From a bacterium (GTDB lineage: Bacteria; Bacteroidota; Ignavibacteria; UBA10030): a DNA stretch of 11,700 nucleotides. Positions 1 to 11,700 of this stretch are shown piece after piece. A program made the translations under genes and the position numbers. The notes beneath the pieces were generated by a model. That model saw nothing but the letters and a program-made list of their open reading frames with translations, was not told the origin of the DNA and ran no database searches. Within the stretch, counting starts at the first letter, position 1. Every line of letters starts with the position of its first letter. The stretch covers positions 1 to 11,700 of the forward strand of contig JAZDJN010000074.1 in the NCBI GenBank assembly GCA_043803945.1. The letters are read 5' to 3'.

Positions 1-1356
1 TCCTCCTCCCGGTGAAGGATTTGTTATCGTCATCGAGACAGGTCCGGAGGCTGCTGCCGCGGGAACTGTAATATACACCGTCGCTTGCGTCGCGGTGTTC
101 ACCTTCACCGAATCGACAACAAGCGGAGCACCAACGGTTACTTGTGTCGCTCCGGCAATAAAATACTTACCAGTAACAACAATGCTCAGCGTCTGGCCGC
201 GGCCAACCGTATCTGGTGTCGCCTTGGTAAATACCGGCTTCTGATAACCAACACTTAGTACACCTTTCAGTGTATCGGATCCGCCGCCAGGAGCAGGAGT
301 TGTGACGATGATGTTCCGTGTGCCAACTGCTGCTCCGGCTGCCACAGTAATCTTCGCGGTCATCTGGGTCGCCGAAGAATAGAGCAGAGAGTCGACCTTG
401 ATGCTATCGCCAAAGCTTACTGTTGTTGCCTTCGAGACGAAGTCCGTTCCCGTCAGTGTCACACTGAAGCTCGAATCCTGCAGTACGATTGCCAGCGATG
501 CACTCGTCAGCATCGGTGCAGGATTGTTCACTGTGAAGGCATTCAACAATGAATCAACCTCTCCCGAAACCGTATTGCGAATCTTCACCATTCGTAACCC
601 AAGCGCCGCGGTATCTTTGATGGAGATTGCCGATTGAAGTTGCGTTGCAGTATAAACACTATCGGATACGACCGTAATTTCGGGACCAAAATTCGAGGCA
701 ATCACGCCGGGATAGAGATTCGTTCCGGTGAGTGTGACCACAAGAGTTTTACCCCGTACACCGCTTGCCGGTGACAGCGATGTTAATGCCGGCTTCGGAT
801 AACTCAATGTAAATGCATTGAGCAATGAATCGACCTCACTCGTGGCTGTATTCCGAATCTTCACTGTTCGAACACCTACTGTTGTTGTATTCAATATTGT
901 GATGTTCGATTTGAGTTGTGTTGTACTCAGGACACTATCGTAGTTCACCGTAATTCCATTGCCAAAATTACTGCTCACGAATCCCTGATAGAAATTCGTA
1001 CCCGTCAGTACTACCGAGAGCGTTTGCCCAAGTGTACCGCCGACCGGTGTCAGCGAGGCAATCGTGGGTTTCGGGAAGGTCACGATGAATGCAGTATCTA
1101 ATTTACTGCTACCGCCGCCAGGAGCCGGATTGATGATGAGTACATTTTTCTTTCCGAGTGTTGCCGTTGGTTTCAGAGTAATATTTGCGGTAAGGTCGGT
1201 TGCCGAGCTTACGGTCACGGAATTCACCGTGATATTCGAGTCGATGGAAACAGTCGTAACTCCAGACAGGAATCCTGAACCGGTAATTGAGATATTCATT
1301 GTTGTTCCCGGAATACCGTTTGTTGGAGTAACGGCTGCAATCGCCGGCACCGGATT
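1..1356 (-). repeat. Tandem IPT/TIG-like Ig-fold repeats: 1078-1356, 802-1077, 526-801, 247-525 and 1-246 (truncated)
   Basis: Units of 92-93 aa with consensus P-x-(I/L)-x-S-(L/V)-(T/S)-P...G-x-T-L-x-V-x-(L/I)-T-G-x-x-F...(S)ATQ(L/M)...G-x-R-x-(V/I). Units 1, 4 and 5 end in P(A/S)PGGG, and units 2 and 3 share VKIRNT...EVDSLLNAFT. Confidence 0.85.
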
Positions 1357-4300
1357 GATCCGGGCAAGAACTGTCCATTGACTCAAATGGGTAAGACCTG
1401 TAGCCGTAATTGTTTTGTCTGTCGTATTGAGAATTGTTTGTGCGACAGGCACAAGAGTCCACCCCGTTCCGCTGGCTGCAAATGAGGAACGATAGGCAAT
1501 GCGCAGTAAGGCAGGATTAACGGTATCCGGTACTCCGGCATAGCTGAAAGTGAGACTGAATGTCCCATCATTTCCCGGGGTCACTCGGGTAATTTCCCAA
1601 TAGCGCGCGAAGAATTGAGCGTAATGTAAAACGCTGTCAGGATCCGTCACAGAACCCGGCGGTGGTGTGGTATTAAAATTGGTTACAATAACTTCTCCGC
1701 CACCACCCGTATTGCCAAAGTCAATACCTACTCCTGTTAATCCAAACATCACCAGAGGCGAATCGGCATTTACAGCAAACGTCTGTCCCATACTGAGTGA
1801 GGGGATCGCTCCCAGGAAGGGAGAGAAGACGACGCTGTCTGATACTGCATCGCCCACCCCGGCTGGATTGCTGGAGTGTTTCGGACCTGTTTCATTCCCC
1901 CACCAATTGAATCGACCATCGACTCCAAGGAGCGTCTCATTCTTGATTCCAAATCCTGGTGACGTGTGATTTGAAATGCGGTTGAAGATCACTCTGGTAC
2001 CAGACGGAGTACCCGTAATCCGAACTCCGTTGAGGGAGTTTGATGAGATGGTGTTATCGCCGATCAGCAGATCCACCGGTGAGAAGAGCGTAATCCCATC
2101 TGTAGTATTGTTTCTGATGGTATTTTGACCCAAGTTGGAAGTGCTGACATTTTGAAGAATAAGCCCGGTGGAATTTTCAAAAACTTCATTCTGATAGATT
2201 TTGATGTTGTCCGAATACCTCAGATCCATTCCTCTATCGCTACTCATCGATATATTATTGCCAATGATCGCTGTCGTATTCGAGTTGTAGAGAGCAAGGC
2301 CTGTAGAATTTTCATTGATGGCAAGGTTGTTCAGGATACCGCTGCCATCGGCATATTCGAGCCGGATTCCAGCGCCGCCGTTGCCGGCGATGTAGACATT
2401 GTTTTCAACAGTGTTATAATAATCCTGAATGACAATACCGTCATTGAGGTTGCCCTTACTCTCATAGGTCATATTGCTGCTGGCTTCGAGTTTTTCCTTG
2501 CGTGCTGTTTGAGCATGATTCACTGCCGTCGACTTCTGAATACTCTTCTGTGCAAGGGAGTTCTTTACAGAGGCTGTGTGTTTCCCTAATCGCTGAGCCT
2601 TCTGCTGCTCTTGCTTCTTCTCCCGTTGTTCGGCAAGTTTTGCTTTCATTGCCGGGCGGGTCGCTGAACGCTCCTGTTGTACTCTTCGAGCTCTGACTTC
2701 GCGTGATTCACTCTTACGTTCACGCTTTGAAGCACCTTGGGGATTCTCTCTATCCAGAACGGAATTTTGTGTAAACGATTGTGCTCGTTCTCCTCTCCTC
2801 GCTTCAGAAGCAGACAGCAAAGGATCTCCAGTAAGCAGAGGATTTGTGGTCACTTTTGTACCGCCAATCTTATTGCCTGTGATGAGATTATCCGAACCCT
2901 CGGCAATTCGTATACCGAATTTCGCATTATCTCCCACCAGGTTATTTTTAATCTGAATATTATATCCCCATGGCACTGAGATACCTGCGGGCATGCCAAA
3001 GCCGCTCTCGATCCCAAACCATCCATTACAAACGATGGTATTACCCTCAATCACCGCATCGACAGTTGCGTAACTCACTTCCCATTCTGCTCCTGCCCAG
3101 ATGCCATGAACCACGTTATGATGAATGTTATTATTCAGGATTTTCGATCCGCTTGAACCGGCTAAAATTATTCCTCCGTATGGACCGCCAAAGTAGTCCT
3201 CCGTATCGCCGTTTTCAAAGATTTCATTCTGGGTAATAAGGTTATTGGTTTCACTCGCTGCATCGTACACCCCAGCCTGAGCATTCCAACGGATTTCATT
3301 GTTTTCTATGGTGGCATTGCTCGTATTGTCGAGATACACGCCGGCTTCTCCGCCGCCGCGGATACGATTCTCCCGGATAATGGAGCCCGAGCCGCCATTG
3401 ATATCGACGAGGTCGTATGAGTAATAATACGGAACCATCCATGCACCGGTTTCCTGGTTGAATATACCATTGCCATCCAGATCGAACTTCTCAATGAGAA
3501 CATTTGAACCTTCGACATAGATACCACCATGCGGGAAGTTCAGATAGGTCAGATCCTTTCCCGCTCCAGTGAGTTTGATGCCGCTCTGAGGAATGTATGG
3601 TTCATATTCACTGATAAAGCCACCCAGAGCAATCCTGATCTCGTCGTTGTCGTTTGCAGCTTTGAGTGCTTCGGTAATACTCCGATACGATGTATTTTGC
3701 ATAACGTTGATGACTGGTGCAACTGGAAGCGAAGCAAGAGTAAGAGGACTCGATTTCGCGAACAACGTGATGATATTGCCGCTCGCTAATTGTTTGCCGG
3801 TCGGATTGTTTGCTTCAAAATCTGGTCCGGCCGCATCGCCCCACCAGTTATGCTGTGCATTCAAGACGGTTTCTACTGTGTTTGAATTCAACAGCGTTAT
3901 ACCAGAGATAGTATTATTGACAATGTTATTCATCGCGATGACATTCTGCATCACCGTCGTATTCGAATTCTCGACATACACACCGTGACCGGTATTTCCG
4001 GAGATCGCGTTTGCCGAAATGGAAATATAATTTGAACCTCCCGAAGTTATCCAGATTCCTGCCCCACTCACGACTGGATCGGCAGTGGCGCCATTGAATG
4101 TGATGGTATTATTCCAGATGACACTCCCGTAAGAATTTTCGAGTTCGATCCCACGGAACAAGTTGTTCGAGATTGTATTTTTTGCCAGCATTGTCGAATT
4201 CTCATTGCTGAGTTTAATACCGACCGGATTGTTCTGCGTCGTGTTCATGATAATATTGGTTGTGTTTGCACTTTCAACCATGATCCCTGAACCGTAGAAT

Positions 4301-7300
4301 CCTGTCACTGTATTACTTTCAACATTCACACGCTCCAACCCAAACATTCCGAGCCCAATGGTCTCTACCACTTCGCTCGTTGGAGATGAAGCTACAGCCG
4401 CCCCTTTCTTCGGGGTGCCTTTCCGAACGATGAGCTTCGGGACCGGTGACTTGCCTTTTTCCTGTACTCCAGCGACCTGCGATGCTGTTAGATTCTCGTT
4501 CGATGACACGGGCTGATTTTTCTGGGCCATCATTGTTGAGCGATGTTGCTGATTCTTTTGCCTGAGATTTTTTTGCTGATTCTTCAGGTTTTCAGTCACA
4601 GCAGTATGCTTTTCCCGCGGTGTTGCTGCAGCAGAAATTTTAAGGCTGCTCAAACCGCCAAGCTGCTTTGAACTCAAGAACGAGCGAGAATTCGATTTAT
4701 TCAATTCACTCCGATACAAACCGCCGGCCATAATCGGCGCACCCGAAGTGACGGTGTTACCCATAATCGTATGATCGTACCCCCATCCGGTTATTATCCC
4801 CCAGACGGCATCGGTCACTACGTTATTCTTCACTGTACCGCCTTCACTTTCAAATAATCCTAGAGCCAGAGCATTTTCCTGATCGACTTCACCCACCCTG
4901 CCATTTGCACGAATCGTATTATTCTCGATCTGGGTGTTGAGACCTACGGCCAAAATTCCATTGCTCACATTTTCGAAGATTTCATTCTCCAGTATTTGGG
5001 TACCTTCCGAATACATGACCATGATACCAGCAATTTCGTCAAACCCTTCGGATTGCCCAAGAAGATTGACATCGCCATTCCAAAAGACCCTGTTATCGCG
5101 AATAACATTGTTCGTGTAGGCACCTTCATCGAGTATTCCAATGTTGCGGTTCCACAAGACATCATTATTCCGCACGATCGTACTGGTTGGTGATTGCAGA
5201 TAAATGCCATAGCCTCCATAGTCTCCTCCGGCACCACGGATTCTATTATTCTCGATGATATTCCCGGTACATTCATAATTGAGCGTTATCATGCTTCGCT
5301 CGTAAGTCAATCCTTGTGTCGCATTCAACGCCTTCGCTGGCTGGTCGTAATACTCCTGACCCAGCCATTCGAAGACACCGGAGGCCGTATCGAGTTTACC
5401 TCCTCCATCAAGATCGAGTCCGGAGATGGTGACATTGTTTCCATAAAATTCATAGGTACTGTACGGCATGAAGATATAGGAGAGATCTTTGCCGACGCCG
5501 AGAAGTTTCAGTCCAGACTGATAGATATAGGCGTTATACGGTTCGACAGAACCGCCCAGTGCAATTTGTATCTCATCGTCATCGCTGGCATAATTGATTG
5601 CTTCAGAGAGTCTCGTATACACCTTATTTTGCTGGATGTTTACTACAGGGCCAGCCGGGAGCGATGTTAATGAGAGTGGAGCAGTTTTTGCAAAGATCGT
5701 GTTTATATTTCCGCTGGCGAGCTGTTTGCCGGCAGGATTATTCGCTTCACCATCCGGCCCGGCCGCATCACCCCACCAGTTATGCTGGGCGTTAAGATTC
5801 GTTGTACTGCCATTTTCGAGCACGACCCCAGCTTCGGTATTTCGTGTGATGTTATTGAGAACGATGATATTCATTTGCGATTCATTTGTATATTCAGACT
5901 CATCCATCTCAGAGGCAATAACTTTCACACCATAACCGGTATTACCATCGATTACATTTGCAGAAATCGAATTACCATTGTTATTCCAAGGATAGATGAG
6001 GATGCCACCACCTGAACCAGCAGGATCGGCGCTCGCACCGTTGTTTACGATGGTATTGTTCCAGATCTGAGTCAGCCAATTGTCTTCATAGAGTTCCACA
6101 CCGGTATACTTATTTTGTGAGATGGTATTTTTCCCAAGAAGTGTTGAATTCGAGTTGTCAACCTCCACCCCGATGGAATTGTTCTGAATAGTGTTCTTAA
6201 CAAGAACTGAGCTGTTTGCATTATCGATCAAGATACCACTTCCATGGAAGCCGCTTACAGAATTACTGTCGCCGACCGTAATATTGTTCCCGCCAAATTC
6301 AATACCGTTGGTCCAGAGGTAATTTCCATTTGCAGTGTTCGCCGCTGCTGCCGGCTTCACACTTTGCTTCTTGATGAAACGCAGTTTCCGCGTTGAGCTC
6401 TTTGCCAGAGTTACGGCATTCGCGGTTGTGCGCTTCGATGAGGCGGTTTTTGATGCGGACGTCGCCTTTCGCCGCGCCGCGAAGGTATTCGTCGCTTGCT
6501 GTAATTCAGACTGGATGCGCTGCCGCTCAGTTTTGAATGTCTGTTTCTCCTGCTCAGCATCGGCGCGTGTTGGAACGTTCTTTGTCGCGGTACGATCGAT
6601 CTTCCCGGATTTCATCGCTTTTTGCGCTCGATGAGCTGAATATTCCACATCGCCATAGGATTCAATCGGTGGACCGGAAACGATGGTGTTCCCCAACACC
6701 TGATTATCACTGCCATAGAGTCTGATTCCCCAGACAGCATTGTTAATGGTATTATACTTAATGAGTGTGTTGTACATTGAAGGCGCTGAAATAGCAGCCG
6801 GCGAATTGAAGGAACCGGCTCCCAGCACTCCGTTATCATGGATGTTATTGCTATCGATGACGGCATCTTCAGACTTCACATAGATGCCATGATTGACGTT
6901 CCCGAAAATCTCGTTCGAGCGTACTATAGAGCCGATTGCATAGTTGAGTACAATACCGGCATTGGGAGTCCCGCTCCCGGCGGCTCCGACATCTCCATTT
7001 TCAAATATTTTGTTACGAACGATCTGATTGTCCGTAGTACTACCCTCATCGACAACTCCTGCATATCGATTCCAATGAATGAAATTGTTCTCGATAAGCG
7101 TTCCATGGGAATATTCCAAGATGATACCCGCACCATTGACACCACGAACTCTGTTGTCCCGTATGATAATCCCGGTCTTGTCATACGTTGCGCGGATGAG
7201 CGGGTACCCGGAGATCAGATCCAGATTGGATCCCGTACCCTGAGTGCTATACCCCTTTTCCGCTCTGTCCACGCCATAGTAATCCCGCCAGGTGAATGTA

Positions 7301-10300
7301 CCATTTACAGTATCCAGCTTTCCACCGGCATCAAAATCGATTCCCTGCACGGTGAGATTGTTCGCGTCCAGCGTCAATCCAGGATAGGTGAATGTGATGT
7401 AGGAAAGATCTTTTCCCGCACCCAGCAACCGTACACCCTCCTGTGCGATGTAGGAATTTTCAGACTCAACAAGCGCTGCTGGTTTGACGATAATATCCTG
7501 CGTTGTTGCCGTGGTATTGATATTGTCAATCGCCTCTTGCAGCGTTCGGTAGACAATACCAGGCTGCACGCTGTTGAGAATCGGCCCTGGCTGTGTAGGA
7601 TTAAATGTCAGCACCGCAGATTGAGGGAATTGCGCGTCGACATTGGCGCTTGTCGTCGAGCCGCCCTGATTCGCGCCAGCCGCAACGCCCCACCAGTTAT
7701 GAGGTGCAGTAAGCCCAGAACTGCTTTCATTGAGAATGGTAATACCAGAGAGCGTATTCCCAATAATATTATTGACGCCGATGACGTTGAGATTCCCCCA
7801 TTCATCATACTGATTCTGACTGTTATCTACTAAAACACCGTGGCCGGTATTGTCGGCAATGGAATTTGACGAAATGGAATTACCCCATACATCCCCAGGA
7901 CCCAACAGCACGCCGCCATTGGAATTTGCGTTTCCAGATGAGCCATTACTCGTAATTGAATTATTCCACACAATATTATGCTGAGCGGAATTCAGCAAGC
8001 TAACGCCAAAATCCTTATTACCGGTGATGGTAAGGCCTCGATATAAGCCATTATCAGTTGATTCAAGGTTCAAACCAACCTGATTCCCCTCGAGGATTCC
8101 GCCGACAACGGTAGTTCTCCATCCCTGATCGAGAAGTCCTGTGGAATTATTATTTTTCGCTTCGATTCCCAGTATCGTTACATCTTCACTACTCTGCAAA
8201 ACTACTCCATTCGAAGTATTTTCATTGGCAACAAGTGTGGTGAATGATAACCAATATCCCCAACTCACCTTAATACCATCATAATGATTCTTATTCGCGG
8301 TTACTCCTGTTAGACTCGAGGTATTAATGTTTTCGAGCTGGAGGCCAGTGCTGTTTTCATTCGCGATGATGGTGGAAAAAGTGAGACCTTGGCCTCCATT
8401 GAGTTGAATACCACGGCCGCCGTTCTTGTTTGCCGTCACATTATTGAGTTCGGATGTATTCACATTACTGAGCCATATTCCATCATTTTCATTCTCACTA
8501 GCAACGACATTGGTCAGTGTTACCGTATTGGCATTGGAGAGGTGGATACCATTGGAACTCGACATCACATCGACATTGTTGATTTCAAGGTTCCCATTGT
8601 AGTACCCCTGAATACCGCTGTTGCCCGCTATGATGCGGAGATTTTCCAGCTTCGTTTGATTTACACCTTCACCGATTGTTATTCCGTTCGCACTTCCCGG
8701 TCCCCGGCTGTCTATCATCGGCCTCGTCAATCCAGCGCCCTCACCCTGAAGGATGATACCCGTCGTGTTGATATTAAGGGATTCGAGGTATGTCCCCGGT
8801 TCAACCGTGACCTTATCCTCGCTAAACACATTAGACAACGCAAAGTCGATTTTACCGCCCGGACTCGCATTGACGCGAAATTCCATCGGTCGCATGAGTT
8901 GGAAGCCAGGCGTCTCCACATCGCCATCGCTGCCATTAGTCAACCATGAACTGTAGACAACATTGTCAGATACCGAGTTCCCCTTCGACAGGGTGTTCGT
9001 TGTATTGGATGTATGCACAGGCCCACCCGTGCCTCCCCACCAGTTATTGTAGGCTGCAAGTGCAGTGCTGGAGTTGTTTTGAACACCAGCCGTTGAGTTA
9101 CCGGAGAGATCGTTGAAGCTGATCACGACCGGCAAGGTGTTGCCGTTCACGACGGTGAGACCCGTACTATTTGCATGGATAAAGTTTTCTGAGATCGTCA
9201 CTGTTCCTGATGTATTGATGTTCTGCAGCACAATACCTGTGGAATTAGCGTTGATGTCATTCTGACTGATATTATATCCGCTAGCATAGTTTAAGAGTAT
9301 GCCAACCCCATTTTGATGGATCGAATTATCGTACATGAATCCGTTGCTGCTTTGACCAATAAGGCCTGTGTTACAATTTGTTATTTCACTTTGTGATATG
9401 CCGCTCATCGAACTATAGAAAATTGCTCCAATATTCTCTGCCTGGATACGGAAACCTCGCACGGATGTCTTGCTTCCCCAGACGATCAATCCATGACCGG
9501 AACCAAGCGCAGTTAACGGACCGCCTGGACCATCTGGATCTTTATTGATTACCAGCGGTCGGGGATCAACGACCGTCTGCGTCCTGGGCGCTTTACTCGC
9601 CTTCGTCGTGGATTCTTCATAACCAAGCACATTGATCATCGATTTGTTGACAGTAACCTCTTCTGTATAAGTACCCGATTTTACTATCACATTGTTCGAA
9701 GATCCTCCGGTTGCTTCGATGCCGCGTTGAATAGATGAGAACAAACCGTTAATAACTCCATCAGCATCTTTCAGCAAAACAGGAGCAAAGGTCGATGAAA
9801 CCACCGGCTGCCACCCTGGGTCACCCATTGCATCATCGGTGCCATCGGTGAACCATGGAGCAAATGAGACCGGACCTGTAATCGAACCGATTTGTGTGCT
9901 CACATTGTAGGTGTTCGATGAATGCTTTGGCCCATCTGCCGAACCCCACCAGTTATCATGCACCTGGAGCTCTGTCGTCGAGGAGTTCAGGAGAGCAACT
10001 CCAGTATTTCCAGCAAGATTATTGTTTTGAATCATTAGCCCACTGAATGAACCCTCTACCTTGATAGCATTGGTGTTTGAGTTGATAAAATTATTAAAGA
10101 GCGTTGTCGAGCTGACATTGGAAAGAACGATTCCCGTTGTATTTGTATTGATCGTATTATTGATGAGATTGAATGAACTGCAATTAGTCAGTTCCAGACC
10201 GATAATACTGTTCACAATTTCCAAATTTTCCAGGTGTACCGTCTGGCGACCATTGGCAACGATCGCTTTACTGGAAGCTGAAACCTTAAAGCCTTTGATC

Positions 10301-11700
10301 TTCACACCATTGGCGTTAATCGCAAATACATTTCCGCTGGCATTCGTCAACGATGGTTTCGTAGCTCCAGTTGTTGACCATCGAATTGACACACCGGTAA
10401 CTGCAACCTGAACTTCACCTGTATAGGATCCTGAATTGACCAGAACGGTTCCACCCGCAGGGATTACCGCCAGTGCATCTTGAAGAGTTGCAAAAGCGTC
10501 GTAACCAAAGCTGGTTGCCGGACCCGTACCATCAGGATCTTCGTTGAGGTTCTTCCCAGCCCAGCCTGCATCAACGTACAGGAGAGAAGAGGTTGGTACA
10601 CCAATGACAAATTCACCATACGACGGAATTGCCGATATTCGTGTGCTCGTTGCTGCCCGAAGGTCTACTGTGGCTTTTGCCCAAGTGGATCCATTCTTCA
10701 CTGCAACTTCGAATTTATTCGGATCAGCGCCTGCATCCACGTCGGCAGCATTAAAGTTGAACGTTGCATAACTGAAGCTTCCTGAGGATCCAACATCTTC
10801 AATTATTTTCCAGGAACGGTTTACGCTTTTCGTCGCGACGAGACCAGAGTATTGAATATCGGCGTGATCTCCGGCTGTCGTGCTGACAGTAAGCCCGCTA
10901 TTGCCGAAACCATTGCCATAGTAAATCTCTATCGGGGTGTACTTCGTCGTGTCTCCAATTTCGAATAAAAAGCCGAACGATCCACCGGGAGCGTAGATCT
11001 TATGGAGATTACCAACGATATGCCCGCTGGTCCGGGTTACTGTTGCAGGGTAAGGAATGGTGATCGTGTTTGTCCCGGTGTTCAGATTACCGGCAATAAA
11101 GTTAAGATTTGTTGTCAGTGTCCGTGAGGCATGAAGGTTGACACTTGCAGCATTGTTGATGACGAGGGTAGCCGGTCCATTTGTTGCGGGAAATTCATTA
11201 TTTGAAGTTGTTTGAACCGCAGTACCATTGTATTCAAGCGTACCATTTGTACCATACGAGAATGTCTTACCATTGAGGTTCAGAGCACCGTTCTTTAGTT
11301 TGAATTTACCGTCAATAACTACGTTGCCCTGAAGAGATGTTCCATTCGAGTTATCCAGGATAAGGTCTTTTAATGCTGAAACACTACTGGGTATATTAAT
11401 AGTGCTCGTGCCCCCGATGATAACTGTGGTTGTATTATCCGTGGTGAGGGTGAGTGAGCTGCTCGTAATCGGCTGAGTGAGTGAAAGAATTTTATTAATA
11501 AGGTTGATCGTCGATGTTGAATTCGACCAGGTACTATTATTAGTTACGTCGCCAGTAATATTCAATGTAAATGACGAACCATTGGTTTGAATGATACCGC
11601 TCGCATTGTTCGTTAATGATCCATTAACCTGTGCGACTACCGTACTACCTGACTTGTTTTGCAATACTCCACTCGCCTCTACAATCAATGCTCCCTCAAA
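1..11700 (-). CDS. Giant (>3,900 aa) secreted/cell-surface protein, partial at both ends: six parallel beta-helix modules, two beta-sandwich modules and IPT/TIG-like repeats
   Basis: Hand translation of the minus frame starting at 11700 reads FEGALIVEASGVLQNKSG... through to ...SMTITNPSPGGG at base 1 with no stop codon. The supplied track lists no minus-strand ORF in this frame, which fits the absence of any stop. Coherent repeated domain motifs occur throughout. Confidence 0.97.
1360..1797 (-). other. Beta-sandwich module between the beta-helices and the Ig stalk
   Basis: ARYWEIT...FSLTFSY...LLRIAYR...GW...TITATGLTHLSQWTV. The motif order parallels the module at about 10600-10900 (NRSWKI...ATFNF...FEVAVK...TW...SYGEFVIG). 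Confidence 0.6.
1801..3720 (-). other. Parallel beta-helix module 6 (contains basic insert at 2452-2859)
   Basis: N-cap YRSITEALKA...LTGAGKDLTYL, coils (IRENRIRG, IENNEIRWN, TQNEIFENGD) and C-cap RFNWWG (1897-1908)...VVFSPFL. Confidence 0.85.
3769..5650 (-). other. Parallel beta-helix module 5 (contains basic insert at 4372-4740)
   Basis: N-cap YTRLSEAINY...LLGVGKDLSYI, coils (IENNRIRG, VRNNDVLWN, RDNRVFWNGD) and C-cap AQHNWWGDAAGP (3838-3849). Confidence 0.85.
5701..7590 (-). other. Parallel beta-helix module 4 (contains basic insert at 6322-6672)
   Basis: N-cap YRTLQEAIDN...LLGAGKDLSYI, coils (IRDNRVRG, IENNFIHWN, VRNKIFENGD) and C-cap AQHNWWGDAAGP (5770-5781). Confidence 0.85.
7621..8880 (-). 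other. Parallel beta-helix module 3
   Basis: N-cap KIDFAL...VTVEPGTYLESL, regular ~22 aa coils (NVTANKNGGRGIQL, GVTANKNHYDGIKV, TLVANENTSNGVVL) and C-cap PHNWWG (7687-7698). Confidence 0.85.
8941..9780 (-). other. Parallel beta-helix module 2
   Basis: N-cap FSSIQRGIEA...VIVKSGTYTEEVTVNK, coils (ISQNDINANSTGIVL, ISENFIHANSTGL) and C-cap YNNWWG (9034-9045)...VVYSSWL. Confidence 0.85.
9850..10584 (-). other. Parallel beta-helix module 1 (pectin lyase-like/NosD-type domain)
   Basis: N-cap LYVDAGW...FATLQDAL...VLVNSGSYTGEV, Asn-ladder coils (INNTINTNTTGIVL, IQNNNLAGNTG) and C-cap HDNWWG (NWWG at 9943-9954)...VSFAPWF. Confidence 0.85.
10600..11700 (-). other. N-proximal beta-solenoid-like region followed by a beta-sandwich module (protein domain region)
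   Basis: T/S/N/G-rich beta repeats (LTNNASG, LNITGDVTNN, LILDNSNG, LVINNAASVNL) are followed from about 11025 by GHIVGNLHK...FEIGDTTKYTP...KSVNRSWKI...FNFNAADVD...NGSTW...SYGEFVIG. This pattern resembles modules in large Bacteroidota/FCB secreted proteins. Recognised by eye, no HMM run. Confidence 0.6.

Follow-up and report, generated by a model that had tools for sequence, protein, structure and literature searches.

Why should a giant, acidic protein carry long, strongly basic segments at one fixed place in each of three related domains? This question is raised by contig JAZDJN010000074.1 of assembly GCA_043803945.1, from the class Ignavibacteria (11,700 nt; the whole stretch was analyzed and is called the window below), whose minus strand is one uninterrupted reading frame of 3900 amino acids (aa), open at both ends. 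An initial annotation, made from this DNA alone, described three beta-helical modules (modules 4, 5, and 6) that are each broken at the same coil by an unrelated basic insert, and proposed that selection acts on the charge and disorder of these inserts. Our analysis favors, with a probability of roughly 0.45, the reading that the inserts are fast-evolving, net-cationic, flexible loops on a continuous AlgE/NosD-like helix, for which polyanion binding is the most likely role.

Three basic inserts share one turn of the beta-helix

The three intervals first assigned to the inserts (Table 1) were in frame, and translation confirmed their lengths of 117, 123, and 136 aa. Each insert sits at the homologous turn of a module of ~645 residues, starting after a G-N-(T/K)-(I/V)-x-(S/G)-G strand and ending before the next x-G-(I/L/V) strand, which reproduces the edges originally claimed, namely GN(T/K)(I/V)...(S/G)G before the insert and an x-G-(I/L) strand after it. 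When nine segments were compared with the whole protein by BLASTP, the pre-insert segments were 35-38% identical to one another and the post-insert segments 30-55% identical, whereas the inserts matched only themselves at E <= 1e-3. The hand-counted net charges of +14 and +15 held for inserts 2 and 3, while that of insert 1, given as +18, is +15 over its full coordinates; a 100-aa window within insert 1 attains +18. Net charge in a sliding window of 40 aa peaks at +12, +6, and +8 in inserts 1 to 3 and is at most +5 elsewhere in the 3900 aa. The inserts hold 5, 2, and 2 aromatic residues, respectively, and the window protein minus its inserts has a net charge of -112 and a pI of 4.65.

Relatives were collected by an exhaustive profile-free search of module 4 against 1.84 billion representative proteins, which gave 97 hits at E <= 1e-3. 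In their best matched stretch, P0003, P0004, P0006 (the same as G020), and the window's own record, P0002, covered the module end to end, and P0005, P0007, and P0008 covered a large part of it that spans the insert position. On inspection of the sequences, each of the six relatives had an insert, and so had the fragment P0010; the remaining hits were generic beta-helix matches to one half of the module. Insert limits were set uniformly by number after inspection; automatic alignment of the flanks had shifted whole coils in several proteins.

Across nine family proteins, the 14 complete inserts always lie between the same two coils. They are 115-155 aa long, with a net charge of +5 to +20, a pI of 9.5-11.7, 15-22% K/R, 4-14% D/E, and 10-23% I/L/V/M, and a 15th, truncated insert occupies the same spot in P0010. 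Their 240-aa flanks have net charges of -4 to -21; without its inserts, each family protein has a pI of 4.05-4.65 and a net charge of -26 to -136. Regions with seven or more K/R per 30 aa number 15 in the nine proteins, and 14 of them fall at the homologous turn; the sole exception is the first 31 residues of the G082 open frame, with the basic start of a signal peptide. This clustering is well beyond chance. A scan of long open frames in the genome for basic windows was uninformative: it picked out 132 of 1585, most of which were non-coding frames or basic proteins.

The insert sequences themselves are not conserved. Median local-alignment z scores against shuffled sequences were 0.8 for inserts, 13.4 for pre-insert parts, and 7.5 for post-insert parts, and only 6 of the 91 insert pairs exceeded a z of 4. 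Forced global alignment gave a median identity of 20% for inserts, compared with 33% and 30% for the two flanks. Most of the insert pairs with similarity come from orthologous modules (P0003_2, P0004_1, and G020_1; clade support 100/99). Conservation of position, length, and positive charge without conservation of sequence, noticed at first in three inserts, thus extends to 14 inserts of nine proteins.

The inserts are predicted to leave and rejoin one continuous helix

We modeled modules 4 and 6 with AlphaFold2 from a 12-row family alignment. The module 4 model had a mean predicted local distance difference test score (pLDDT) of 67.9 and a predicted template modeling score (pTM) of 0.68, with flanks mostly at 79-97; for module 6, the mean pLDDT was 77.0 and the pTM 0.77, with flanks mostly at 84-98. 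Foldseek hits in the PDB were then realigned to the models, the ranges quoted here being the first and last aligned residue only. Module 4 superposed on AlgE6 (5LW3; Z 34.1, root-mean-square deviation [rmsd] 1.9 A, 312 aligned residues, model 1..507), on phi29 gp12 (358 aligned, model 1..582), and on the Pam1 tailspike (7EEA; 398 aligned, model 1..632). Module 6 superposed on an alginate epimerase/lyase (8JAZ; Z 31.6, 337 aligned, model 1..556), on 7EEA (427 aligned, model 1..605), and on NosD (7OSF; 314 aligned, model 137..623). The pre-insert part comprises ~297 residues in module 4 and 276 in module 6; these numbers are smaller than the aligned counts, and therefore many post-insert residues must share the same rigid superposition, although the exact pre- and post-insert shares are not readable from the ranges.

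Distant relatives that lack the insert point in the same direction, since they continue directly into further coils at the junction. In P0013, query residues 143-295 match target residues 561-722, and query residues 427-533 match target residues 730-841; beta-helix repeats can slip in alignment, so contiguity of this kind supports one helix and does not prove it. The 150 residues after the junction are acidic in all five insert-free proteins.

Could the inserts instead be linkers between two independent, separately capped beta-helix domains? The pre- and post-insert parts do belong to different sequence sub-types, and the post-insert part also matches the C-terminal half of insert-free modules. 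However, in both models, structures of single beta-helices match both sides of the insert at once and align more residues than one half alone contains, the insert-free relatives are contiguous at the junction, and the coil pattern picks up again in register after the insert. A linker between two domains is thus very improbable. The models of modules 4 and 6 show what the initial annotation had expected, a continuous beta-helix with a low-confidence loop; the flanks did not appear as two independently capped helices, nor was a known globular domain found. We conclude that, as modeled, each insert loops out from a single turn of one continuous helix.

Disorder and helix propensity within the inserts

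The inserts have a common anatomy (means of 14). Their first and last tenths contain 11-12% Pro and 22-26% Ser/Thr and are rich in hydrophobic residues, and their middle contains 27-28% K/R and 12-13% D/E, with more Ala and Gln. The edges are weakly conserved, with no standout motif and no conserved cleavage motif. Scored whole, 13 of 14 inserts had a negative FoldIndex, as did the central 60% of every one of the 14; the value was positive in 28 of 28 flanks. The pLDDT was below 50 over most of both modeled inserts. Database searches with the inserts returned nothing better than E 0.29 in Pfam and, at best, E 0.4-0.6 in the PDB (the ribosomal S6 tail and RdgC), and the protein Atlas gave no usable match, with a low recognition score of 1078. 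On these results we rejected a known domain inside the inserts. By FoldIndex, pLDDT, and the lack of a significant Pfam or PDB match, the inserts classify as predicted intrinsically disordered regions.

The proposal of disorder holds for the low-confidence loops and the negative FoldIndex values, yet it needs qualification: in both modeled inserts, the core contains a predicted helix of ~50 residues, at a pLDDT of ~50-69. These long helices (Table 1) raise the alternative of a structured arm, in which a ~50-residue single alpha-helix or coiled-coil strand would cross-link fibers. Apart from the modest pLDDT of the helices, three observations speak against it. First, opposite-charge pairs at i/i+4 were not enriched in the inserts of the window (z -1.0, -1.4, and -1.2), and z reached at least 2 in only 2 of the 14 inserts. 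Second, the maximal helical hydrophobic moment, compared with shuffles, stayed below a z of 2 in 13 of 14 inserts (-1.2 to +0.7; 2.3 in one). Third, a proline falls within the predicted helix of insert 3. A helical arm is accordingly doubtful. On i/i+4 pairs and the hydrophobic moment, the ER/K single alpha-helix, the coiled coil, and amphipathic signatures were rejected as classes, being not above shuffles.

The same measurements bear on the suggestion, made at the outset, that the inserts are releasable cationic peptides of an antimicrobial type. Their net positive charge is the only feature in favor. An amphipathic signal is missing, 4-14% of residues are acidic while only 10-23% are I, L, V, or M, and the edges carry no cleavage motif, which together make this reading highly improbable. 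Amphipathic cationic antimicrobial peptides were likewise rejected as a class, the hydrophobic moment not exceeding that of shuffles.

Insert sequences diverge over long but not short distances

Modules 4 and 5 are sisters on their post-insert parts (tree support 100/99), and yet their inserts are dissimilar; therefore, a module seems to have been duplicated together with its insert, which then diverged beyond recognition. Over short distances, the picture is mixed. Three near-identical variants of P0003 have 0 of 12, 0 of 9, and 0 of 3 differences inside inserts, and P0004 and P0109 have 2 of 9. Between P0004 and P0112, 17 of 35 differences fall in inserts, 16 of them in one insert, whose net charge changes from +20 to +18. 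We therefore consider the inserts weakly constrained and not hypermutated: the expectation that orthologs would keep position and charge was borne out, and that of hypervariable sequence fails at short range.

In the same pair of proteins (>98% identical), 23 of the 35 differences lie in a 117-residue stretch, P0004 residues 638-754, that takes in the last part of insert 1 and the coils directly beyond it. This cluster looks like a local recombination tract or a hot spot. A tandem repeat in insert 2 (Table 1) hints at slippage as one source of insert change or growth. Searches of the 118 contigs of the assembly with the inserts by blastn (word 11, E <= 0.01) and tblastn (E <= 0.1) returned only the inserts themselves; with no other copies of insert DNA or peptide in the genome, an origin from a mobile or repeat element was rejected. 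Open frames on the plus strand run antisense to insert 3 (2125-2589, 154 codons) and insert 1 (6335-6634, 99 codons). They fall where the insert DNA has a strong AT skew, and K/R/E/Q codon bias most likely gave rise to them.

Weak constraint is also what one would expect of a tolerated spacer or charge-balancing loop that drifts at a permissive turn, is hydrophilic and basic only for the solubility or export of a very acidic, aggregation-prone rod, and has no specific ligand. The nearly unconstrained insert sequence (median z 0.8), the in-frame tandem repeat with its slippage-type growth, the concentration of P0004/P0112 differences in one insert (16 of 35), and the wide range of net charge all suit such a loop. 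Pure drift, however, would predict deletions and some neutral or acidic loops, whereas all 14 complete modules of this type retain the insert, within 115-155 aa and always net positive, in host proteins that are otherwise strongly negative, and it is unchanged in the three near-identical P0003 variants. We regard a spacer as somewhat unlikely.

Relation to known beta-helix proteins

A profile of seven pre-insert parts matched AlgE4 (E 1.7e-6) and AlgG (~1e-5) by sequence, with E values from 1.7e-6 to 1.2e-5. The top structural matches were alginate epimerases, NosD, phage tailspike depolymerases, and polysaccharide lyases. By profile and model likeness, the module belongs with the sugar-binding beta-helices of NosD/CASH type.

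The AlgE4 and AlgE6 A-modules (2PYG and 5LW3), periplasmic AlgG (4NK6 and 4OZY), and an alginate epimerase/lyase (8JA4) share with the modules a right-handed parallel beta-helix with an N-terminal cap, and AlgE/AlgG-type structures superpose at Z 30.7-34.1 and rmsd 1.5-2.0 A over 306-312 residues. They differ in that nothing in these chains lies opposite the long insert in the alignments, and in that the module is here repeated within a giant of the type IX secretion system (T9SS). The motif of AlgE enzymes reads YG(F/I)DPH(D/E). In the profile comparison, the DPHD motif of AlgG ("idphdrs") is an insertion without a counterpart in the seven pre-insert parts, and the motif region of AlgE4 is covered by no aligned stretch. 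With the DPHD motif unmatched, the modules do not qualify as mannuronan C5-epimerases by sequence, and the likeness does not show enzyme activity. Six aligned modules, drawn from three genomes, agree without exception at several residues of the pre-insert part (6673-7563 in module 4, and its equivalents in modules 5 and 6): D76, D78, N137, R138, R140, G141, N160, W164, N165, and N189-G190, in the numbering of module 4. These residues may mark a ligand-binding groove.

NosD (PF05048, PF13229, TIGR03804, and 7OSF) superposes on the modules at Z 28.4-31.8, although the window protein scores only 48.8 against a cut-off of 300 with the whole-protein NosD family. NosD itself forms one periplasmic helix and is part of an ABC complex, and nothing comparable to that setting surrounds the giant protein.

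Polycationic segments are found on other surface proteins. The C-terminal tail of mycobacterial HBHA and a region of Bordetella FHA, itself a beta-helix, are Lys-rich, low-complexity, heparin-binding segments that bind sulfated or acidic polymers electrostatically. They are terminal tails or lie on the helix surface and are not inserts at a fixed internal turn, and their composition of K/A/P repeats differs from the K/R/E/Q/A/S/T mix of the inserts. A likeness in architecture comes from a serine-rich repeat protein of Lactobacillus reuteri: its binding region is a beta-solenoid from whose core a flexible element protrudes, and it binds polygalacturonate, chondroitin sulfate A, and DNA (PMC5866549). 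Like the giant protein, this adhesin is a surface-displayed right-handed beta-helix with a flexible protrusion; it belongs to a Gram-positive lineage and uses another export route. By analogy, it offers a precedent for a polyanion-binding beta-solenoid with a flexible loop (PMC5866549).

A candidate role in polyanion binding

What is kept in the inserts is only their position, length class, and sign of charge, a pattern expected of sequence-independent electrostatic contacts with polyanions. We propose that a lineage-specific loop of low complexity would exit one fixed turn of the beta-helix and re-enter it one coil later, and that this loop would be mostly flexible, with a mixed-charge, helix-prone core between edges rich in Pro, Ser, and Thr. 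Its host would be a very acidic surface rod of ~5,000 residues, exported by the T9SS, along which three such loops are displayed. As polycationic arms, the loops could tether the rod electrostatically to polyanions, candidate partners being acidic polysaccharide, extracellular DNA, lipopolysaccharide, and the acidic rods of neighboring molecules. Acidic polysaccharide is among the candidates because the nearest solved relatives of the fold act on alginate. Both the flexibility of the loops in vivo and any binding role are inferred.

Several points count against polyanion binding. Conservation of charge could serve solubility, charge balance, or export instead, and net charge varies fourfold among the inserts. 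With 4-14% acidic residues, the loops are polyampholytes and not pure polycations, and given the ~50-residue helix in both modeled inserts, part of each loop may be structured. The 12-row alignments behind the models are shallow, and AlphaFold may stack beta-helix halves by habit. Last, fold likeness to alginate enzymes is silent on the substrate.

A more speculative, and unlikely, extension is that the giant protein is a self-made electrostatic material. Here, the acidic rods (pI ~4.3-4.65 without loops) would carry regularly spaced arms that clasp neighboring rods, or an alginate-like polymer in the AlgE-like groove, to form a mesh or coat held by weak charge contacts. If so, only charge, length, and position would need conserving.

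The claim of an undescribed system proved overstated: the loop is specific to one lineage and occurs in a single, rare family of surface proteins. Its components, a beta-helix surface protein, a T9SS cargo, and a disordered basic segment, are well known. In the parts available to us of the literature on Ignavibacteria, T9SS, and the beta-helix, polybasic inserts in T9SS cargo are not described, nor, in those on beta-helix surface proteins, are comparable basic or disordered segments. The combination not found described is a long polybasic loop at one fixed internal turn of a beta-helix, occurring here every ~640 residues. If the loops bind polyanions, they would show how very long surface fibers of an uncultured group can be anchored or cross-linked by a design that is simple and testable, and would be a clean example from nature of selection that acts on charge and length but not on sequence. 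Their significance would grow if the arms organize a surface mesh; as mere spacers, they would be an ordinary lineage-specific loop.

The host gene and its export

The window is one whole contig (C74) of an assembly of 5.54 Mb in 118 contigs. At its upstream end, 138 nt are identical to contig C61, whose frame adds ~461 residues and supplies the start and, by sequence, a signal-peptide-like N-terminus (a basic and then a hydrophobic stretch, ending in A-x-A). At its downstream end, 109 nt are identical to contig C50, whose frame adds 679 aa. This continuation contains PGGG Ig-like repeats (NCBIfam CoaZ_rpt_PGGG, E 3.7e-64, six stretches) and ends in a T9SS type A sorting domain (TIGR04183, 30.7 bits, cut-off 23), which is linked to the window solely through the exact 109-nt overlap. 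If the contig joins are correct, the gene product would be a T9SS cargo protein of ~5,040 residues, an estimate because internal repeats may be collapsed in the assembly. The gene is broken over C61:1-1446, window 1-11700, and C50:17779-19927, the assembly breaking at internal repeats: a ~170-aa segment, with a 46-residue stretch that is 76% identical, recurs in the N-terminal part on C61, and PGGG repeats lie at the C50 end, so that the true length or repeat number may deviate from the estimate.

In the window, the protein scores 378.1 bits with PF13229 (cut-off 25.9; 11 Beta_helix stretches) and 270.9 bits with PF05048 (cut-off 23.6; 15 NosD stretches), and module 4 scores 44.6 bits with TIGR03804 (cut-off 19.45). 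Besides the Ig-like array in Table 1, Pfam matches in this part are beta-helix repeats. All seven relatives with a complete C-terminus share, by eye, the same kind of T9SS type A tail, a class that is uninformative about the inserts. PorU-like C25 genes, detailed below, indicate T9SS machinery in all four gene-carrying genomes and, with the sorting domain, speak for export.

Table 1. Coordinates of inserts, modules, and other features of the window; residues are those of the 3900-aa frame, and model residues refer to the AlphaFold2 model of the respective module.
Feature	Position (residues)	Strand	Remarks
Insert 1	6322..6672 (1677-1793)	-	K14 R10 D3 E6, net +15; no self-similarity; pLDDT <50 at model 299-335, 370-438; FoldIndex -0.20
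Insert 2	4372..4740 (2321-2443)	-	K14 R6 D0 E6, net +14; contains 12-nt tandem repeat
Insert 3	2452..2859 (2948-3083)	-	K15 R15 D2 E13, net +15; pLDDT 29-62; FoldIndex -0.28
Predicted long alpha-helix, insert 1	6415..6567 (model 333-383)	-	DSSP on AlphaFold model; block pLDDT 50-69
Predicted long alpha-helix, insert 3	2584..2739 (model 317-368)	-	AlphaFold model
Shorter predicted helices, insert 3	2752-2814 and 2485-2520 (model 292-312, 390-401)	-	AlphaFold model
12-nt tandem repeat in insert 2	4546-4584		3 copies, 73% matches; encodes KNQQ/KNLRQ repeats
Module 4 pre-insert beta-helix	6673..7563 (1380-1676)	-	N-terminal cap and coils; 35-38% identity to modules 5, 6; block pLDDT 71-97 except low-confidence loop at model 95-118
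Module 4 post-insert beta-helix	5596..6321 (1794-2035)	-	ends HNWWG; 55% identity to module 5; pLDDT 79-89 at model 440-550
Module 5 pre-insert beta-helix	4741..5622 (2027-2320)	-	BLASTP segment matches
Module 5 post-insert beta-helix	3661..4371 (2444-2680)	-	BLASTP; tree sister of module 4 part (100/99)
Module 6 pre-insert beta-helix	2860..3687 (2672-2947)	-	BLASTP; block pLDDT 70-98, mostly 90s
Module 6 post-insert beta-helix	1801..2451 (3084-3300)	-	BLASTP; block pLDDT 73-95 to ~model residue 580
Giant gene, internal part (3900 aa)	1..11700	-	single open frame; upstream part on C61, downstream part on C50
Start of C-terminal array of ~90-aa Ig-like repeats ending PGGG	1..1350	-	Pfam TIG PF01833; continues into C50

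Export through the T9SS bears on a further alternative, in which the inserts are internal processing sites or pro-segments cut by Arg/Lys-specific proteases, after which the halves of a module stay stacked or the giant is split. Cleavage at Arg and Lys is known from Porphyromonas gingivalis, in its gingipain and HagA polyproteins. The loops are long, exposed, and 15-22% K/R, and PorU-type Peptidase_C25 genes (PF01364) score above the cut-off in the genome of the window (G000) and in the three other gene-carrying genomes, that is, in 4 of 4, with a second C25 gene of ~1,800 aa in 2 of them. The C25 gene of ~1,350 aa, however, is most likely PorU, which is universal in T9SS organisms and hence non-discriminating, and the insert edges lack a conserved cleavage motif. 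Processing at the inserts is therefore rather unlikely.

Distribution and genomic neighborhood

The gene was found in 2 of 41 relative genomes searched, in 2 of 401 genomes sampled from the class, and in 4 of 86 searched from its own GTDB family (4 of 33 genera). Named carriers are metagenome-assembled genomes of Ignavibacteriae/Ignavibacteria, and two protein records are labeled Bacteroidota. A scan of JGI metagenome contigs gave 45 loci, none of which spans the pre-insert part and the insert (best, query 219-617 at 24%). A word-index search with the three modules among proteins of 2145-6825 aa returned the window's own protein alone. As far as searched, the family is rare and limited to a handful of Ignavibacteria-type genomes. 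Each gene encodes one to three insert-bearing modules. In the databases, GcrA-family fragments of 36-47 aa (P0099-P0108) share a 90%-identity cluster with P0003 (2098 aa); they are unrelated to it, and we set them aside as a clustering artifact.

In all four carrying genomes, the giant gene adjoins Glu/Leu/Phe/Val dehydrogenase genes (L008:6562-7980; L013:8123-9538 and 9821-11215; L011:17378-18790; L105:866-2203; L106:3113-4225), and the four genes therefore look like positional orthologs. This conserved synteny has no obvious functional link. In two of the four genomes, GT2 glycosyltransferase genes lie upstream of the giant gene. Its downstream neighbor in the genome of the window (L105:2482-5424; C50 14478-17423, minus strand) encodes another T9SS cargo protein, of 981 aa, with a glycosylhydrolase-like region of F510_1955 type that stays under its cut-off (161.1 versus 175 bits), PGGG repeats like those of the giant protein, and a sorting domain of its own.

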